Part shown: in pieces, positions 11,079 through 42,734 of the stretch
Position numbering within the stretch: the stretch's first letter is position 1
How the letters are laid out: each line of letters starts with the position of its first letter
Assembly: GCF_003334315.1 (NCBI RefSeq)
Contig: NZ_QOWR01000011.1
Source: Escherichia coli
GTDB taxonomy: Bacteria > Pseudomonadota > Gammaproteobacteria > Enterobacterales > Enterobacteriaceae
Direction: 5' to 3' (one strand)
DNA length: 64,000 bases
Translations under genes and position numbers: made by a program
Notes under the pieces: generated by a model
The model's database searches: none
What the model was told of the DNA's origin: nothing
The model's input: the letters and a program-made list of their open reading frames with translations, nothing else

Positions 11079-11763
<685 letters not shown>

Positions 11764-12237
11764 TTAACTTAAAGAGTCTGTTTCAGGACATGAAATATCC
11801 AATCCGGGCAGACGGGTAATGATTCTGCTCATCACCACACCTGCCAGCAATGCAGGAATGATGCGGACAACGAGACTGTCACCAGAAAGAATGTTTTCAA
11901 ACAACTCCGAGGAAGCCATGCCCTTAATATGTACAATAACTGCACAATAGATCTCGGTGATAACGACGCCACCTATGCCACCAGCCAGACAACGATAATT
12001 TTTCTGTGACCCGATCTTTTCCGGCAGACAGGCGACCATCACGCCGGTTAACAATGCAGGAATAGCTCCCGTAGTAATCGACAATAAGAGAAACAATGGA
12101 AGTACCTGTATTATTACCAAAAGAACCAGCGGTTCTTTTGCGAAGAATATGTAGAGGACAAGAAACAGAACACCAATTAACGGTCCTAAAACCGCAAAAT
12201 AAAGTCCGTGATGTATTACCCGACGTGAAACAGACAT
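11764..12237 (-). CDS. cbrB: Inner membrane protein CbrB
   Basis: Hydrophobic about 157-aa protein starting at internal Met (MSVSRRVIHHGLYFAVLG...); the ORF-track N-terminal extension was rejected; exact start uncertain. Confidence 0.7.
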   Translation of the reverse strand: MSVSRRVIHHGLYFAVLGPLIGVLFLVLYIFFAKEPLVLLVIIQVLPLFLLLSITTGAIPALLTGVMVACLPEKIGSQKNYRCLAGGIGGVVITEIYCAVIVHIKGMASSELFENILSGDSLVVRIIPALLAGVVMSRIITRLPGLDISCPETDSLS

Positions 12238-12284
12238 ATCAAACACCCTTAACTTACCTTTGAGCGCCAATTTAAGCGGGGTAA

Positions 12285-12300
12285 GTGAAGGGAGTGTGAA
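12285..12300 (-). promoter_or_regulatory. cre-tag (CreB response-regulator binding direct repeat) upstream of cbrB
   Basis: Minus strand reads TTCACactcccTTCAC, matching the TTCACnnnnnnTTCAC cre-tag consensus, about 50 bp upstream of the cbrB start. Confidence 0.65.
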
Positions 12301-12303
12301 GAA

Positions 12304-12969
12304 CTATGCCGTAATATCCCAACCACGCGCTTTCCACAGTTCCGGTAACTGCGAAAGATGGGTAAAGGTGGTGACTTTCGGGTGAACGATCGGCTTATTG
12401 TGCGGGTCGGCGCAGAAGTAGAACACTTCCATACCTGCGTCGATACCAGATTGCGCACCGGCAACTGAGTCATCAACCAGAATGCAGTTTTCTACATTTA
12501 CATTCATCGCTTTTGCCGCATGGAACATTAACGCCGGGTCTGGCTTCCAGCGCTGAATATCGTAGCCGCTGAACAGTTTATCCGGGAAGTAGTGCAACAT
12601 ATTCAGCTTGCCCATAGAATGCTGCATTTTGTTATTTGGGCCGTTAGATACCACACACATTGGCGCAGTGATCGCTGACAGGAGCGCTCCAGCCCCTTCG
12701 ATGGCTTCCAGTTCTGAATCGAACAGCCGAGCGACTTCTGCACGGTAAACGTGTTCAGCTTCTGTTTTCGCTAACGTAACACCATGTTCAAGGGAAACAA
12801 TATCGATAATTTCGTACAGTTTTACACCTTTGAAACGTTTGAATACCTCTTCAGGATCGAGCGTAATACCAAATTCCTGAAACATCGTTACATATGCGCG
12901 AGAGCAAATGACTTCACTGTCGACCAGCGTACCGTCGCAGTCGAAAAATACCGCTTCTATCCGGGACAT
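12304..12969 (-). CDS. yieH: HAD-superfamily phosphatase (6-phosphogluconate phosphatase-like)
   Basis: 221-aa ORF with HAD motif I FFDCDGTLVDSE near the N-terminus. Confidence 0.85.
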   Translation of the reverse strand: MSRIEAVFFDCDGTLVDSEVICSRAYVTMFQEFGITLDPEEVFKRFKGVKLYEIIDIVSLEHGVTLAKTEAEHVYRAEVARLFDSELEAIEGAGALLSAITAPMCVVSNGPNNKMQHSMGKLNMLHYFPDKLFSGYDIQRWKPDPALMFHAAKAMNVNVENCILVDDSVAGAQSGIDAGMEVFYFCADPHNKPIVHPKVTTFTHLSQLPELWKARGWDITA

Positions 12970-13133
12970 GCCTTTCCTTTTTAATCAGTTTAACGTTTTC
13001 GTAGAGCCGATTTGCGCAACGCAATCGTTGCCGTATAAGTAAATCCAATAAAAAAGTCTCTCACAAACGCGCCTATTGTCGCATTTTGGTATACGATAGC
13101 GACGGATTTTCCCTCCTTGTTCGGAAATAGATA

Positions 13134-14471
13134 ATGAGTCAACAACACACAACCCAGGCTTCTGGCCAGGGGATGCTGGAACGCGTGTTTAAACTGCGCG
13201 AACATGGCACGACGGCACGGACCGAAGTGATCGCTGGTTTTACCACCTTCCTGACGATGGTTTACATCGTTTTTGTTAACCCGCAAATTCTTGGCGTTGC
13301 TGGCATGGATACCAGCGCCGTCTTCGTCACTACCTGTCTGATTGCTGCATTCGGCAGTATTATGATGGGACTGTTTGCTAACCTGCCAGTTGCACTGGCA
13401 CCCGCTATGGGCCTGAATGCGTTCTTCGCTTTTGTCGTTGTGCAGGCGATGGGCTTGCCGTGGCAGGTCGGGATGGGCGCAATCTTCTGGGGCGCGATAG
13501 GTCTGCTGTTACTGACGATTTTCCGCGTTCGCTACTGGATGATTGCCAACATTCCGGTGAGTCTGCGTGTGGGCATCACCAGCGGTATCGGTCTGTTCAT
13601 TGGTATGATGGGACTGAAGAATGCAGGTGTGATTGTCGCTAACCCGGAAACGCTGGTCAGCATCGGTAATCTGACTTCTCACAGCGTGCTGCTGGGGATC
13701 CTCGGCTTCTTCATCATCGCCATTCTGGCCTCGCGCAACATTCACGCGGCGGTGCTGGTTTCCATCGTGGTGACAACGCTGCTGGGCTGGATGCTGGGTG
13801 ATGTCCACTATAATGGCATCGTTTCTGCGCCGCCGAGCGTAATGACTGTCGTGGGTCATGTAGATTTAGCCGGTTCGTTTAACCTCGGCCTGGCAGGGGT
13901 GATTTTCTCTTTCATGCTGGTCAACCTGTTTGACTCCTCCGGTACGCTGATTGGCGTGACCGATAAAGCAGGTCTGGCGGATGAGAAGGGTAAATTCCCG
14001 CGCATGAAGCAGGCGCTATATGTCGACAGTATCTCTTCTGTTACCGGTTCGTTTATCGGTACTTCTTCTGTTACGGCGTATATCGAGTCTTCTTCCGGCG
14101 TTTCTGTTGGTGGTCGTACCGGTCTGACGGCAGTCGTTGTTGGTCTGCTGTTCCTGCTGGTTATCTTTCTGTCGCCGCTGGCGGGGATGGTGCCAGGCTA
14201 CGCTGCAGCTGGTGCGCTGATTTACGTTGGCGTGCTGATGACTTCCAGTCTGGCACGCGTGAACTGGCAGGATCTTACTGAATCTGTTCCGGCGTTTATT
14301 ACCGCCGTGATGATGCCGTTCAGCTTTTCGATTACCGAAGGTATTGCGCTGGGCTTTATCTCCTACTGCGTAATGAAAATCGGTACCGGACGTCTGCGTG
14401 ATCTAAGCCCGTGCGTAATCATCGTTGCGCTGCTGTTTATCCTGAAGATTGTGTTTATCGACGCTCACTAA
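13134..14471 (+). CDS. adeP: Adenine permease (NCS2/AzgA family)
   Basis: 445-aa polytopic membrane ORF; divergent from yieH. Confidence 0.88.
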   Translation: MSQQHTTQASGQGMLERVFKLREHGTTARTEVIAGFTTFLTMVYIVFVNPQILGVAGMDTSAVFVTTCLIAAFGSIMMGLFANLPVALAPAMGLNAFFAFVVVQAMGLPWQVGMGAIFWGAIGLLLLTIFRVRYWMIANIPVSLRVGITSGIGLFIGMMGLKNAGVIVANPETLVSIGNLTSHSVLLGILGFFIIAILASRNIHAAVLVSIVVTTLLGWMLGDVHYNGIVSAPPSVMTVVGHVDLAGSFNLGLAGVIFSFMLVNLFDSSGTLIGVTDKAGLADEKGKFPRMKQALYVDSISSVTGSFIGTSSVTAYIESSSGVSVGGRTGLTAVVVGLLFLLVIFLSPLAGMVPGYAAAGALIYVGVLMTSSLARVNWQDLTESVPAFITAVMMPFSFSITEGIALGFISYCVMKIGTGRLRDLSPCVIIVALLFILKIVFIDAH

Positions 14472-26013: not shown

Positions 26014-27417
26014 GTGTCACTTTCGCTTTGGCAGCAGTGTCTTGCCCGATTGCAGGATGAGTTACCAGCCACAGAATTCAGTATGTGGATACGCCCATTG
26101 CAGGCGGAACTGAGCGATAACACGCTGGCCCTGTACGCGCCAAACCGTTTTGTCCTCGATTGGGTACGGGACAAGTACCTTAATAATATCAATGGACTGC
26201 TAACCAGTTTCTGCGGAGCGGATGCCCCACAGCTGCGTTTTGAAGTCGGCACCAAACCGGTGACGCAAACGCCACAAGCGGCAGTGACGAGCAACGTCGC
26301 GGCCCCTGCACAGGTGGCGCAAACGCAGCCGCAACGTGCTGCGCCTTCTACGCGCTCAGGTTGGGATAACGTCCCGGCCCCGGCAGAACCGACCTATCGT
26401 TCTAACGTAAACGTCAAACACACGTTTGATAACTTCGTTGAAGGTAAATCTAACCAACTGGCGCGCGCGGCGGCTCGCCAGGTGGCGGATAACCCTGGCG
26501 GTGCCTATAACCCGTTGTTCCTTTATGGCGGCACGGGTCTGGGTAAAACTCACCTGCTGCATGCGGTGGGTAACGGCATTATGGCGCGCAAGCCGAATGC
26601 CAAAGTGGTTTATATGCACTCCGAGCGCTTTGTTCAGGACATGGTTAAAGCCCTGCAAAACAACGCGATCGAAGAGTTTAAACGCTACTACCGTTCCGTA
26701 GATGCACTGCTGATCGACGATATTCAGTTTTTTGCTAATAAAGAACGATCTCAGGAAGAGTTTTTCCACACCTTCAACGCCCTGCTGGAAGGTAATCAAC
26801 AGATCATTCTCACCTCGGATCGCTATCCGAAAGAGATCAACGGCGTTGAGGATCGTTTGAAATCCCGCTTCGGTTGGGGACTGACTGTGGCGATCGAACC
26901 GCCAGAGCTGGAAACCCGTGTGGCGATCCTGATGAAAAAGGCCGACGAAAACGACATTCGTTTGCCGGGCGAAGTGGCGTTCTTTATCGCCAAGCGTCTA
27001 CGATCTAACGTACGTGAGCTGGAAGGGGCGCTGAACCGCGTCATTGCCAATGCCAACTTTACCGGACGGGCGATCACCATCGACTTCGTGCGTGAGGCGC
27101 TGCGCGACTTGCTGGCATTGCAGGAAAAACTGGTCACCATCGACAATATTCAGAAGACGGTGGCGGAGTACTACAAGATCAAAGTCGCGGATCTCCTTTC
27201 CAAGCGTCGATCCCGCTCGGTGGCGCGTCCGCGCCAGATGGCGATGGCGCTGGCGAAAGAGCTGACTAACCACAGTCTGCCGGAGATTGGCGATGCGTTT
27301 GGTGGCCGTGACCACACGACGGTGCTTCATGCCTGCCGTAAGATCGAGCAGTTGCGTGAAGAGAGCCACGATATCAAAGAAGATTTTTCAAATTTAATCA
27401 GAACATTGTCATCGTAA
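26014..27417 (+). CDS. dnaA: Chromosomal replication initiator DnaA
   Basis: 467 aa from GTG 26014 ([13 protein letters not shown]...); AAA+ Walker [12 protein letters not shown]; C-terminal DNA-binding domain. Confidence 0.95.
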
Positions 27418-27421
27418 ACCT

Positions 27422-28521
27422 ATGAAATTTACCGTAGAACGTGAGCATTTATTAAAACCGCTACAACAGGTGAGCGGTCCGTTAGGTGGTCGTCCTACGC
27501 TACCGATTCTCGGTAATCTGCTGTTACAGGTTGCTGACGGTACGTTGTCGCTGACCGGTACTGATCTCGAGATGGAAATGGTGGCACGTGTTGCGCTGGT
27601 TCAGCCACACGAGCCAGGAGCGACGACCGTTCCGGCGCGCAAATTCTTTGATATCTGCCGTGGTCTGCCTGAAGGCGCGGAAATTGCCGTGCAGCTGGAA
27701 GGTGAACGGATGCTGGTACGCTCCGGGCGTAGCCGTTTTTCGCTGTCTACCCTGCCAGCGGCGGATTTCCCGAACCTCGATGACTGGCAGAGTGAAGTCG
27801 AATTTACCCTGCCGCAGGCAACGATGAAGCGTCTGATTGAAGCGACCCAGTTTTCTATGGCGCATCAGGACGTTCGCTATTACTTAAATGGTATGCTGTT
27901 TGAAACCGAAGGTGAAGAACTGCGCACCGTGGCAACCGACGGCCACCGTCTGGCGGTCTGTTCAATGCCAATTGGTCAATCTTTGCCAAGCCATTCGGTG
28001 ATCGTACCGCGTAAAGGCGTGATTGAACTGATGCGTATGCTCGACGGCGGCGACAATCCGCTGCGCGTACAGATTGGCAGCAACAACATTCGCGCCCACG
28101 TTGGCGACTTTATCTTCACCTCCAAACTGGTGGATGGTCGCTTCCCGGATTATCGCCGCGTTCTGCCGAAGAACCCGGACAAACATCTGGAAGCTGGCTG
28201 CGATCTGCTCAAGCAGGCGTTTGCTCGCGCGGCGATTCTCTCTAACGAGAAATTCCGCGGCGTACGTCTTTATGTCAGCGAAAACCAGCTGAAAATCACC
28301 GCCAACAACCCGGAACAGGAAGAAGCGGAAGAGATCCTCGACGTTACCTATAGCGGTGCGGAGATGGAAATCGGCTTCAACGTCAGTTATGTGCTGGATG
28401 TTCTGAACGCGCTGAAATGCGAAAACGTCCGCATGATGCTGACCGATTCGGTTTCCAGCGTGCAGATTGAAGATGCGGCCAGCCAGAGCGCGGCTTATGT
28501 TGTCATGCCAATGAGACTGTA

Positions 28522-28522
<1 letters not shown>
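27422..28522 (+). CDS. dnaN: DNA polymerase III beta sliding clamp
   Basis: 366-aa [20 protein letters not shown]...; conserved dnaA-dnaN-recF order. Confidence 0.95.
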
Positions 28523-32038
<3,516 letters not shown>

Positions 32039-32277: not shown

Positions 32278-32676
32278 ATGGGGCTTTTTGATGAAGTTGT
32301 CGGTGCCTTTCTGAAAGGCGATGCGGGGAAATATCAGGCTATTTTAAGTTGAGTTGAGGAGCAGGGCGGCATTCAGGTGCTGCTGGAAAAACTGCAAAGT
32401 GGCGGCTTAGGGGCCATTCTCTCAACCTGGCTGAGTAATCAACAGGGCAATCAATCGGTTAGTGGCGAGCAACTGGAATCGGCGCTCGGCACAAATGCGG
32501 TGTCCGATCTCGGGCAAAAACTTGGCGTGGATACCAGTACAGCTTCCAGTTTACTGGCAGAACAATTGCCGAAGATTATTGATGCGCTCTCACCGCAAGG
32601 TGAAGTGTCACCACAAGCCAATAACGATCTGCTTTCCGCAGGCATGGAACTGCTGAAAGGGAAACTCTTCCGCTAA
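32278..32676 (+). pseudogene. yidB: Small DUF937-type protein YidB interrupted by an in-frame TGA at codon 25
   Basis: ATG 32278 MGLFDEVVGAFLKGDAGKYQAILS then TGA (32350-32352), and the same frame continues VEEQGGIQVLLEKLQSGG... to 32676; the ORF track only reports the downstream piece 32377..32676. Confidence 0.65.
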
Positions 32677-38012: not shown

Positions 38013-39305
38013 ATGGATATCCCCGTTAATGCAGCAAAGCCGGGGCGTCGGCGTTATCTGACGCTGGTGATGATCTTTATTACGGTGGTCATTTGTTATG
38101 TTGACCGCGCTAACCTGGCCGTGGCTTCCGCCCATATTCAGGAAGAGTTCGGCATTACGAAAGCGGAAATGGGCTATGTATTTTCGGCCTTCGCCTGGCT
38201 TTATACGCTATGCCAGATCCCCGGCGGTTGGTTTTTAGATCGCGTAGGTTCTCGCGTGACTTATTTTATTGCGATATTTGGTTGGTCAGTGGCGACTTTA
38301 TTCCAGGGCTTTGCCACGGGATTAATGTCATTAATTGGTCTGCGTGCGATAACCGGTATTTTCGAAGCGCCCGCTTTCCCGACCAATAACCGGATGGTGA
38401 CCAGCTGGTTCCCGGAACATGAACGCGCTTCCGCCGTTGGTTTTTATACGTCTGGTCAGTTTGTCGGTCTGGCGTTTTTGACTCCGCTGCTGATCTGGAT
38501 TCAGGAGATGTTGAGCTGGCACTGGGTGTTCATTGTCACTGGTGGTATCGGCATTATCTGGTCGCTGATTTGGTTTAAGGTTTATCAGCCGCCGCGCCTG
38601 ACCAAAGGTATCAGCAAAGCTGAACTGGATTACATTCGTGATGGCGGCGGTCTGGTGGATGGTGATGCGCCGGTGAAAAAAGAGGCACGTCAGCCGTTAA
38701 CAGCCAAAGACTGGAAGCTGGTGTTCCATCGTAAACTGATCGGCGTTTATCTTGGGCAATTTGCGGTGGCTTCTACACTGTGGTTTTTCTTAACCTGGTT
38801 CCCGAACTATTTAACCCAGGAAAAAGGAATCACGGCGCTGAAAGCAGGCTTTATGACCACGGTGCCATTCCTCGCGGCGTTTGTCGGCGTCCTGCTCTCT
38901 GGCTGGGTCGCGGATCTGCTGGTACGTAAGGGCTTTTCACTGGGCTTTGCGCGTAAAACGCCGATTATCTGCGGCTTGCTGATCTCCACCTGCATTATGG
39001 GCGCTAACTACACTAACGATCCGATGATGATTATGTGCCTGATGGCGCTGGCATTCTTCGGTAACGGTTTTGCTTCGATTACCTGGTCGCTGGTCTCTTC
39101 TCTGGCACCGATGCGCCTGATTGGTTTAACCGGCGGCGTGTTTAACTTCGCCGGTGGTCTGGGCGGCATCACCGTTCCGCTGGTGGTGGGGTACCTGGCG
39201 CAGGGTTACGGTTTCGCACCTGCACTGGTTTATATCTCCGCCGTCGCGTTGATTGGCGCGCTCTCTTACATCCTGCTGGTGGGCGATGTGAAGCGCGTTG
39301 GCTAA
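38013..39305 (+). CDS. dgoT: D-galactonate:H+ symporter (MFS, anion:cation symporter family)
   Basis: 430 aa from internal Met ([22 protein letters not shown]...); the ORF-track start 37968 is an extension. Confidence 0.88.
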
Positions 39306-40366
39306 TCTTTCAACTGTGGAATATGCGCCATACCACTGCGCATAATCCACTTTCTTAAAGCCGGTGCGGTCAGGCATCGGCTTTTTACTATCTTGCCGAA
39401 GAGTTTTAAACGCAGTTTGCGGGTGGCGCGCCAGTAAGCGGTATTGAGCTTCTCTGGCTGCTTCAGTAACACCGCACGCAGAATGTCTGCGCTATCCAGC
39501 GCATAGCTAATCCCCTCCAGCGAACTGGCGCTGATAAATCCTGCCGCTTCGCCAATCAGAAAGGCGTTGTCCTTACCGCAGACAAAATCCTGCCAGCGTG
39601 AGGGAAACAGCACCGTGCATTTTTCGCTTTTCACCGCCTTACCAAACTGGAACTGAAAGGCGCTCATTTTCTCTTTCAGCGTCGTGAAACGCGTCTGACC
39701 GTCTTTCATTGGATAAGCACCGCCAAAGATAAAATAACCGTCTTTGCTGATACTCCATGAATAACAGTTAGTTATCGAATTATCAAAGATGCAGGAGTAG
39801 AACGGCACCGGATGTTTCTCCGCGAACCACTGCTGGATAGCGACATATTTACGGATTTGATGATCCGGGTAGAGATGTCGCCGCACCATCGAGTTTGCGC
39901 CATCGGCACCGACCAGATAGCGGGCGGTAATATGTTGCTCCCAGCCGTCTGCACGAAAAATGACATGCCATTTATCATCCTCACGCCAGATTTTTCGGCA
40001 CAGGCTATCGTGATAAACCTCAACGCTGGTGGGGATCAGCGATTTCATCCACAAGTCGAAAGCATGGCGATTAATATTGATATAGCTTCGCTGGTAGTTA
40101 CGCGTGAGCGATGCGGCGACGTCGACAGTTTTGACGCTGAAAATCTGCGGGTTGGCGATCACATCGACAGGAAGCGTCAGTCCATCGCGAATAAAAGATC
40201 GCTGCGCGTCCGGTGCCAGCAGACCGCCGCAAGGTTTGCTGAAACCTTCAGTACCACACTGGTGCTTTTTATCCAGCGCGATCACCTGCATTTTGCCTGC
40301 TAATTTTCGCGCCAACGCCGATCCTGCCGGGCCGATGCCAATAATCGCCACGTCGAAATGTTCCAT
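39302..40366 (-). CDS. cbrA: FAD-dependent oxidoreductase, colicin E2 tolerance protein CbrA
   Basis: 354 aa from internal Met; Rossmann FAD motif [14 protein letters not shown]. Confidence 0.85.
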
Positions 40367-40412
40367 CTTTTCACTCACATTCATCACGATGGCAAAAGAC
40401 TATTGTCTGAAA

Positions 40413-40428
40413 GTGAAGTCCTTGTGAA
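40413..40428 (-). promoter_or_regulatory. cre-tag (CreB binding direct repeat) upstream of cbrA
   Basis: Minus strand reads TTCACaaggacTTCAC, about 47 bp upstream of the cbrA ATG. Confidence 0.65.
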
Positions 40429-40466
40429 GTATGATGGCGGGACCCGTTTTGTATCAGGACCGCGCC

Positions 40467-41681
40467 ATGAAACAGATAACCTTTGCTCCCCGTAATCACC
40501 TGCTCACCAATACCAATACCTGGACGCCCGACAGCCAGTGGCTGGTATTTGACGTGCGTCCTTCTGGCGCGTCGTTTACCGGAGAGAGCATTGAGCGTGT
40601 GAATATCCATACCGGCGAGGTCGAGGTTATCTATCGCGCGTCACAGGGCGCACACGTCGGCGTGGTGACCGTTCATCCGAAGTCAGAGAAGTATGTCTTC
40701 ATCCACGGCCCGGAAAATCCTGATGAAACATGGCATTACGACTTCCATCATCGGCGCGGAGTGATTGTTGAAGGCGGCAAGATGAGTAACCTTGATGCGA
40801 TGGATATTACCGCGCCGTATACGCCTGGAGCGCTGCGCGGCGGCAGCCATGTGCATGTCTTTAGCCCGAACGGTGAAAGGGTGAGCTTTACCTATAACGA
40901 CCATGTAATGCATCAACTCGATCCGGCGCTGGATTTGCGAAACGTCGGTGTTGCTGCACCGTTTGGCCCGGTCAATGTACAAAAGCAGCATCCGCGTGAG
41001 TACAGCGGTAGCCACTGGTGCGTGCTGGTGAGTAAAACCACGCCCACGCCGCAGCCAGGCAGTGATGAAATCAATCGTGCTTATGAAGAAGGATGGGTAG
41101 GAAATCACACGCTGGCGTTTATTGGCGACACACTTTCGCCAAAGGGCGAGAAAGTGCCGGAGCTGTTTATCGTTGAGTTACCGCAAGATGAAGCTGGCTG
41201 GAAAGCGGCAGGTGATGCGCCGTTAAGTGGAACGGAAACCACCCTGCCCGCGCCACCGCGCGGCGTCGTGCAGCGACGTTTAACCTTTACCCACCATCGG
41301 GCTTATCCGGGGTTAGTCAACGTCCCGCGCCACTGGGTGCGCTGTAATCCGCAGGGTACGCAAATCGCGTTTTTAATGCGTGATGATAACGGCATTGTGC
41401 AACTATGGCTTATCTCGCCACAGGGCGGCGAGCCGCGCCAGTTAACCCATAACAAAACGGATATTCAGTCTGCATTTAACTGGCATCCATCAGGAGAATG
41501 GTTGGGCTTTGTGCTGGATAATCGAATTGCTTGTGCCCATGCGCAAAGCGGCGAGGTTGAGTATTTAACCGAAAACCACGCCAATCCGCCTTCTGCGGAT
41601 GCCGTGGTCTTCTCACCGGATGGTCAATGGCTGGCGTGGATGGAAGGTGGCCAGCTGTGGATCACCGAAACTGATCGCTAA
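40467..41681 (+). CDS. yidR: Uncharacterized beta-propeller-like protein YidR
   Basis: ORF MKQITFAPRNHLLTNTNTWTPDSQWLVFDVRP...; start ambiguous (ATGs at 40431/40434 also in frame); 40467 chosen for its better RBS context. Confidence 0.7.
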   Translation: MKQITFAPRNHLLTNTNTWTPDSQWLVFDVRPSGASFTGESIERVNIHTGEVEVIYRASQGAHVGVVTVHPKSEKYVFIHGPENPDETWHYDFHHRRGVIVEGGKMSNLDAMDITAPYTPGALRGGSHVHVFSPNGERVSFTYNDHVMHQLDPALDLRNVGVAAPFGPVNVQKQHPREYSGSHWCVLVSKTTPTPQPGSDEINRAYEEGWVGNHTLAFIGDTLSPKGEKVPELFIVELPQDEAGWKAAGDAPLSGTETTLPAPPRGVVQRRLTFTHHRAYPGLVNVPRHWVRCNPQGTQIAFLMRDDNGIVQLWLISPQGGEPRQLTHNKTDIQSAFNWHPSGEWLGFVLDNRIACAHAQSGEVEYLTENHANPPSADAVVFSPDGQWLAWMEGGQLWITETDR

Positions 41682-41682
41682 A

Positions 41683-42015
41683 TCAGTTATCAGGCATTCT
41701 GGCCGGTGGAATAACCGCATTGGTGGCTTGCGCGTTGGCTTCGCTTTTTTCAACGCGTGAGCGCACCGAGCTGTCTTTGCGGAACACATCCCACGGCAGT
41801 AAAAGCGTGTCCATCACAGCGGTAAACGGCATATCGAGAATCGCCAGCGACTTAGTGCCCCAGTTGGTTTCATCGTCGCCAATCATGGTGGCGCTGGCGC
41901 GGGTGCCGGGATACGTTCCTTCTTTCCCCCCGGTATGGGACATCACGCTGGAGCATCCTCCGAGTAATGTCATTCCGCTGCATATCATGAACGCTAACAA
42001 CACATTTCTTATCAT
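41683..42015 (-). CDS. yidQ: Small lipoprotein YidQ
   Basis: 110 aa from internal Met with lipobox (MIRNVLLAFMICSGMTLLGGCSS). Confidence 0.75.
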   Translation of the reverse strand: MIRNVLLAFMICSGMTLLGGCSSVMSHTGGKEGTYPGTRASATMIGDDETNWGTKSLAILDMPFTAVMDTLLLPWDVFRKDSSVRSRVEKSEANAQATNAVIPPARMPDN

Positions 42016-42218: not shown

Positions 42219-42320
42219 TACATCGTAGCCGATGAGGACGCGCCTGATGGGTGTTCTGGCTACCTGACCTGTCCATTGTGGAAGGTCTTACATTCTCGCT
42301 GATTTCAGGAGCTATTGATT

Positions 42321-42734
42321 ATGCGTAACTTTGATTTATCCCCGCTTTACCGTTCTGCTATTGGATTTGACCGTTTGTTTAACCACTTAGAAAACAACCA
42401 GAGCCAGAGTAATGGCGGCTACCCTCCGTATAACGTTGAACTGGTAGACGAAAACCATTACCGCATTGCTATCGCTGTGGCTGGTTTTGCTGAGAGCGAA
42501 CTGGAAATTACCGCCCAGGATAATCTGCTGGTGGTGAAAGGTGCTCACGCCGACGAACAAAAAGAGCGCACCTATCTGTACCAGGGCATCGCTGAACGCA
42601 ACTTTGAACGCAAATTCCAGTTAGCTGAGAACATTCATGTTCGTGGGGCTAACCTGGTAAATGGTTTGCTGTATATCGATCTCGAACGCGTGATTCCGGA
42701 AGCGAAAAAACCGCGCCGTATCGAAATCAACTAA
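42321..42734 (+). CDS. ibpA: Small heat-shock protein IbpA (alpha-crystallin family)
   Basis: 137 aa [24 protein letters not shown]...; alpha-crystallin domain. Confidence 0.93.

Follow-up and report, generated by a model that had tools for sequence, protein, structure and literature searches.

The repeat that lies just upstream of cbrA in Escherichia coli raises the question of whether it is an operator of the response regulator CreB and, if so, how such an operator would be built into the cbrA promoter. We examined this in a window of 64,000 nucleotides, by which we mean the whole stretch of DNA that was analysed. The initial annotation had placed a cre tag about 47 bp upstream of cbrA, and the minus strand, read from 40428 to 40413, indeed gives an exact match, TTCACAAGGACTTCAC, in which TTCAC is directly repeated with an 11-bp period, presumably to accommodate a dimer of phosphorylated CreB (CreB~P). 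The tag is 46 nt away from the cbrA start codon (ATG, 40366..40364), its last base being at -47, and an identical tag occupies 3869315-3869330 of K-12 MG1655, where the cbrA ATG is at 3869377.

The coding sequence of cbrA runs on the minus strand from 39302 to 40366 (354 aa, RefSeq annotation), under the RefSeq product name 'colicin M resistance lipid reductase CbrA'. The protein scores 686 bits with the NCBIfam equivalog NF008519, for which the cut-off is 303, and the geranylgeranyl reductase family appears as background; CbrA is thus an FAD-dependent reductase of that family which confers resistance to colicin M. Its divergent neighbour on the plus strand is yidR, annotated by PGAP at 40467..41681 as a 404-aa DUF3748 protein. 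An Rfam scan of positions 39000-42000 gave no match, which means that no riboswitch or leader is present there. Farther along, a ROSE-type RNA thermometer annotated in strain CP53 precedes ibpA at 42255-42327 (plus strand) and is ordinary for that gene. The locus is chromosomal, the 501 bases around the cbrA tag matching 5421 of 5426 complete E. coli genomes, and positions 12912-64000 of the window are 99.99% identical to CP53.

Control of cbrA by CreB, as originally proposed, agrees with published work, in which CreBC is stated to control cbrA positively and cbrA is co-induced with creD, cbrB and cbrC; after 30 min of exposure to colicin M, creD, cbrB, cbrA and cbrC (log2 5.7, 5.2, 4.3 and 3.8, respectively) are among the most induced genes (PMC3599342). 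The description of cbrA as a colicin E2 tolerance gene has to be corrected, because both RefSeq and the same study assign colicin M to cbrA and colicin E2 to cbrC: CbrA protects against the former and CbrC against the latter (PMC3599342), and in RefSeq cbrC is the 'colicin E2 tolerance protein CbrC'. Overall, the earlier reading stood in its substance, a cre tag in the cbrA promoter region, and failed in the colicin phenotype that it gave to cbrA. The symbol cbr is said, after Cariss 2010, to stand for CreB-regulated, and the shared name implies no common E2 phenotype.

Avison et al. 2001 established the cre/blr tag, TTCACnnnnnnTTCAC, bound by CreB/BlrA, as the promoter signature of the Cre regulon (PMC3660660, PMC4689548, PMC3962086, PMC13214185); binding of CreB to cre tags in vitro is cited (PMC3962086, PMC4689548), and creD serves as the marker promoter for CreBC activity (PMC4689548). 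The site upstream of cbrA is an already described cre tag, and its detection here is the rediscovery of a documented site. The eight cre-tagged genes of Avison 2001 reportedly include yidS, which is cbrA, and yieI, which is cbrB, and we take the cbrA tag to be the yidS site of that study, the motif, gene and genome position being the same and without any difference. As a discovery the site therefore carries little weight, its regulator and the site itself having been described in 2001 and the gene having been named after that regulation. Binding of CreB to the cbrA tag is expected, given the secondary citations above and the 2001 study.

Keeping in mind that the cre motif holds 20 bits of information and that, under a uniform model, about nine exact copies are expected by chance in a 4.6-Mb genome (2 x 4.64e6 / 4^10), a match to the motif alone proves nothing, and position and conservation have to carry the argument. 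On both strands of the 64 kb, exact TTCACN6TTCAC occurs twice, against 0.16 occurrences expected from 100 dinucleotide shuffles, and two or more copies were reached in 1 of the 100. A cre/blr tag is recognised by two TTCAC pentamers in direct repeat, an upstream regulatory position facing the gene, and purifying selection that preserves the pentamers among orthologues. In the cbrA tag the pentamers are exactly 6 nt apart, the site lies upstream of cbrA and faces it, and the selection is evident from a comparison of orthologues, as follows.

The comparison covered one genome per species; 44 genomes, enterobacterial and related, contained a CbrA orthologue. An exact tag is present in the cbrA promoter zone, on the cbrA strand, in 31 of these, and 8 further genomes have a tag upstream of cbrA with a single mismatch, TTCAT in one half-site; the one-mismatch carriers include Buttiauxella (two assemblies), Enterobacter sp. 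ENT03, Phytobacter massiliensis, Leminorella, Kosakonia pseudosacchari and Intestinirhabdus. Outside the cbrA promoter zone only two exact tags occur on both strands of 177 kb of orthologue loci; both lie inside the yidA coding sequence (loci L028 and L033) and were taken as chance matches. Across about ten enterobacterial genera, 38 distinct cbrA orthologue promoters retain both pentamers, as does Intestinirhabdus, with T as the last base of one pentamer in 8 of the 38, while the 6-nt spacer varies (AAGGAC, ACAGAG, GCTGAC, CGTCAC, CCTGAC, GGTCTC and others) and the flanks become unalignable. The tag is kept in three gene contexts: with yidR about 100 bp away (Escherichia, Citrobacter, Pseudocitrobacter), with yidR 125-260 bp away, and with dgoR as neighbour and no yidR (Superficieibacter, Phytobacter ursingii and diazotrophicus, Kosakonia sp. 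S29 and others). This conservation of the pentamers across genera and contexts, while spacer and flanks change, excludes chance. Within E. coli, 5186 of the 5426 complete genomes carry a 43-bp core without a single difference. No tag was found upstream of cbrA in three CbrA-bearing lineages, namely Gilliamella, an Oscillospiraceae MAG and the enterobacterial genome L047. Judged from these comparisons, the cbrA cre tag would be functional beyond reasonable doubt.

Several individual loci deserve mention. In Intestinirhabdus alba (L026, 1307-1500) the tag is followed after 10 nt by TACAGT and then by about 150 bp of extra sequence before the ATG, an insert absent in the other genera. E. coli GF4-3 (L007, NZ_CP053258.1 3050326-3051321) has neither cbrA nor the cre tag, and its dgoT-yidR interval contains a different gene, encoding a 225-aa hypothetical protein, and a gene fragment. 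In loci with dgoR divergent from cbrA, the cre tag is closely preceded by a conserved TGTACTACAAT-like sequence (L031-L033 and L036, at about 1380-1430), and this is possibly an operator of DgoR, a GntR-family protein.

The same alignments point to the architecture of the promoter. Exactly 10 nt past the tag, a TAnnnT hexamer occurs in 37 of the 38 distinct orthologue promoters, in at least 8 different versions and in unalignable contexts; the hexamers seen among the orthologues include TAGTCT, TAGCGT, TAGCAT, TACAGT, TACCGT, TAACGT, TATCGT, TACGCT, TATTCT and TAGCCT. In the window the predicted -10 hexamer is TAGTCT at 40397..40402 (minus strand). At the position of a would-be -35 hexamer with a 17-nt spacer stands ACAAGG (40420..40425, minus strand), which matches TTGACA at only 1 of 6 positions; hence there is no -35 element, and its position is occupied by the tag. 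From the position of the -10 hexamer, transcription of cbrA is predicted to start at 40390, give or take 2 nt, on the A of a CCATC sequence that is kept in Escherichia and Citrobacter (3869353 in K-12); the tag would then lie at about -38 to -23 and the 5' UTR would be about 24 nt long. No mapped start of cbrA or yidR was found in Kim 2012, in SMRT-Cappable-seq or in the part of the Cappable-seq data that was covered. A cbrA start upstream of the tag, which would bring the repeat into the transcript, is unlikely because the conserved -10 hexamer lies downstream of it.

A consensus promoter scan preferred a different arrangement, in which TTCACA, the first half-site of the tag and a match to 5 of 6 positions of the -35 consensus, is paired at an 18-nt spacer with AATAGT as the -10 hexamer. 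CreB would then overlap a self-sufficient promoter. We rejected this candidate since AATAGT, 8 nt from the tag, is not conserved outside Escherichia, whereas TAnnnT at 10 nt is.

PhoB-dependent promoters are built from repeats with an 11-bp period that end 10 bp before the -10 hexamer and stand in place of a -35 element; the repeats sit at about -40 to -20 from the start, and activation goes through sigma-70 region 4. CreB belongs, as PhoB does, to the OmpR/PhoB family. Two of the features that mark this type of promoter are found here: tandem repeats of about 11 bp ending about 10 bp before the -10 hexamer in 37 of the 38 cbrA promoters and at cbrB, and the lack of a recognisable -35 hexamer at cbrA. 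We therefore regard it as highly probable that the known cre tag is the CreB operator of a PhoB-like cbrA promoter. Two CreB molecules would sit head to tail on the TTCAC pentamers, one helical turn (11 bp) apart, on a tag that ends 10 bp before the weak -10 hexamer TAGTCT and substitutes for the missing -35 element. From the -35 position CreB~P would recruit RNA polymerase in the way PhoB does at pho boxes, through what we infer, by analogy, to be a PhoB-like contact with sigma-70. Transcription of cbrA would thereby depend on activation of CreBC, for which minimal medium and envelope or colicin M stress have been reported.

The tag may have a second role in this divergent intergenic region. 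The scan predicted a yidR promoter on the plus strand with a -35 hexamer CTGAAA at 40407..40412, invariant in 24 sequences, and, with conservation as further evidence, a putative -10 hexamer TATGAT at 40430..40435; the two are separated by a 17-nt spacer made up of the 16-nt tag and 1 nt, and together match sigma-70 consensus at 9 of 12 positions. All 24 sequences, from Escherichia, Citrobacter and Pseudocitrobacter, share a 29-bp block, ATCATAC-tag-TTTCAG, without change, although the intergenic DNA around it varies, and both flanks of the block lose their conservation where yidR is more distant or absent. The predicted cbrA and yidR promoters overlap back to back, so that only one RNA polymerase could be accommodated at a time.

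The yidR start codon itself is annotated in two ways: K-12 MG1655 has the ATG at window position 40434 (415 aa) and PGAP has it at 40467 (404 aa). In every alignment, yidR orthologues start with the first residue of the 404-aa form; in Citrobacter the 11 additional codons are out of frame, and the K-12 start codon falls inside the predicted -10 hexamer TATGAT. The K-12 start is probably placed too far upstream.

One may suppose that CreB~P, once on the tag, switches cbrA on while repressing yidR, a proposal that extends the reading of the tag as a cbrA operator rather than replacing it. It is favoured by the plus-strand promoter with its 9 of 12 matches, by flanks that are invariant in the 24 sequences and not conserved without a nearby yidR, and by the conserved yidR start at 40467, from which a 5' UTR of about 25 nt is predicted. 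It is weakened by the colicin M response, in which cbrA rises about 20-fold while yidR is absent from the changed genes (PMC3599342), and conservation of the flanks could equally reflect clade-specific contacts of CreB or of RNA polymerase. We consider this dual role conceivable, although on balance doubtful; it is a testable idea that emerged from the present checks.

Far less probable is that the repeat is read by another regulator of the OmpR/PhoB family, either PhoB, through cross-talk from CreC (PhoM), or CpxR. The reverse complement of the tag, GTGAA-N6-GTGAA, resembles the CpxR box, GTAAA-N5-GTAAA. Yet the spacing is 11 bp and not 10, and no orthologue departs from G at the third position of GTGAA. 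The Cpx target spy is also induced by colicin M (PMC3599342), but the co-induced set consists of creD, cbrA, cbrB and cbrC, each with a cre tag, and the literature assigns the tag to CreB/BlrA (PMC3660660, PMC4689548). We therefore see very little room for this alternative and retain CreB as the protein that most probably acts at the cbrA tag.

Exact tags are credited in K-12 to talA and ackA as well, 260 and 320 nt, respectively, from those start codons and without a -10 hexamer at the conserved distance. The same tags are only 13 and 3 nt from the starts of the divergent genes maeB and yfbV (L065, 1891-1906; L066, 1636-1651). The list of genes changed by colicin M does not contain talA (PMC3599342). 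Such distal exact tags may be weak sites or chance matches. That the cbrA tag, too, is a chance match that binds nothing, as the nine or so copies expected per E. coli genome and the talA and ackA tags, distal and abutting other start codons, might suggest, is on the sequence evidence effectively refuted by pentamers conserved in about ten genera and three gene contexts despite variable spacers and flanks, by 31 exact promoter-zone tags against 2 elsewhere in 177 kb of both strands, and by the co-induction of cbrA with creD and cbrBC (PMC3599342), and we give it practically no credence.

The other exact tag of the window, TTCACACTCCCTTCAC, is that of cbrB-cbrC at 12285..12300 on the minus strand; it leaves 47 nt to the cbrB ATG (12237), lies 3 nt past the yieH stop codon and is followed after 10 nt by a predicted -10 hexamer TAAATT (12269..12274, minus strand). 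The two tags are 28.1 kb apart, close to the 28 kb first given, and the replication genes that had been said to separate them, dnaA, dnaN, recF and gyrB, do lie in between (26014-32038), among about 25 other genes. In the window, yidB (32278-32676, plus strand) has an internal stop at codon 25 and is annotated as a pseudogene in CP53. The claim that the two sites are identically organised is borne out by the full pattern TTCAC-N6-TTCAC-N10-TAnnnT, of which the cbrA and cbrB strings are the only instances in the window. The cbrB tag resembles the cbrA tag in this grammar, in its orientation relative to the gene, in the lack of a -35 element and in its distance to the ATG (47 vs. 46 nt). It differs in the spacer, ACTCCC instead of AAGGAC, and in following directly on the stop codon of the co-oriented yieH rather than lying in a divergent intergenic region.

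The 3' end of yieH contains a tag with one mismatch, TTCACCCGAAAGTCAC (12371-12386, minus strand), which precedes the cbrB tag by 86 nt and may be either a chance match or an additional CreB site of lower strength. The segment 3468-12911, from the bgl genes to yieH-cbrB-cbrC, is absent from the closest complete genome, CP53, which has IS1 instead, and positions 11300-13300 are covered to at least 80% in only 3531 of 5426 E. coli genomes. These two observations indicate that the cbrBC side is much more variable within the species than the cbrA side.

A third promoter-proximal tag belongs to creD (K-12 4638101-4638116), where the exact tag is 61 nt from the ATG and overlaps the last codons of creC, the TAG stop codon of which lies one base after the tag (L064, 4102-4178). 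In K-12, Salmonella, C. koseri, E. fergusonii and C. youngae (L064, L067-L070), a block ATA[AG]CTTCAAATTC after the tag, downstream of the creC stop codon, is conserved in all five species, and 9 nt past the tag stands AATTCT in four of them and AATTCC in C. youngae. AATTCT is the likely -10 hexamer of creD on this comparison. A cbrA-like candidate, TAGTCT at 22 nt past the tag, was rejected, being not conserved in Salmonella, C. koseri and C. youngae. The creD and cbrA tags are alike in that both are exact, promoter-proximal and followed by a conserved -10-like hexamer, and they differ in the spacing to that hexamer, 9 nt vs. 10 nt.

Cumulatively, our modest additions to the documented site are the cross-genus footprint of the tag, the fixed 10-nt distance to the -10 hexamer and the overlap with the predicted yidR promoter. 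The grammar TTCAC-N6-TTCAC, N10, TAnnnT without a -35 hexamer could separate functional CreB sites from the approximately nine chance copies per genome. It is conceivable, though on balance doubtful, that the tag doubles as the spacer of the yidR promoter in Escherichia, Citrobacter and Pseudocitrobacter and serves as a toggle by which one CreB~P dimer turns cbrA on and yidR off, and that the promoter grammar splits core from distal tags. If this is true, a tag followed after 9-10 nt by a -10 hexamer would mark a strongly CreBC-induced core regulon of cbrA, cbrBC and creD, as opposed to the distal tags.

A further known counterpart of the cbrA tag is the pho box, as found at pstS and phoA. Both consist of direct repeats with an 11-bp period that are read by a regulator of the OmpR/PhoB family, end 10 bp before the -10 hexamer and replace the -35 element, whereas the half-site, CTGTCAT in the pho box and TTCAC in the cre tag, differs between them, as do the regulator and the signal.
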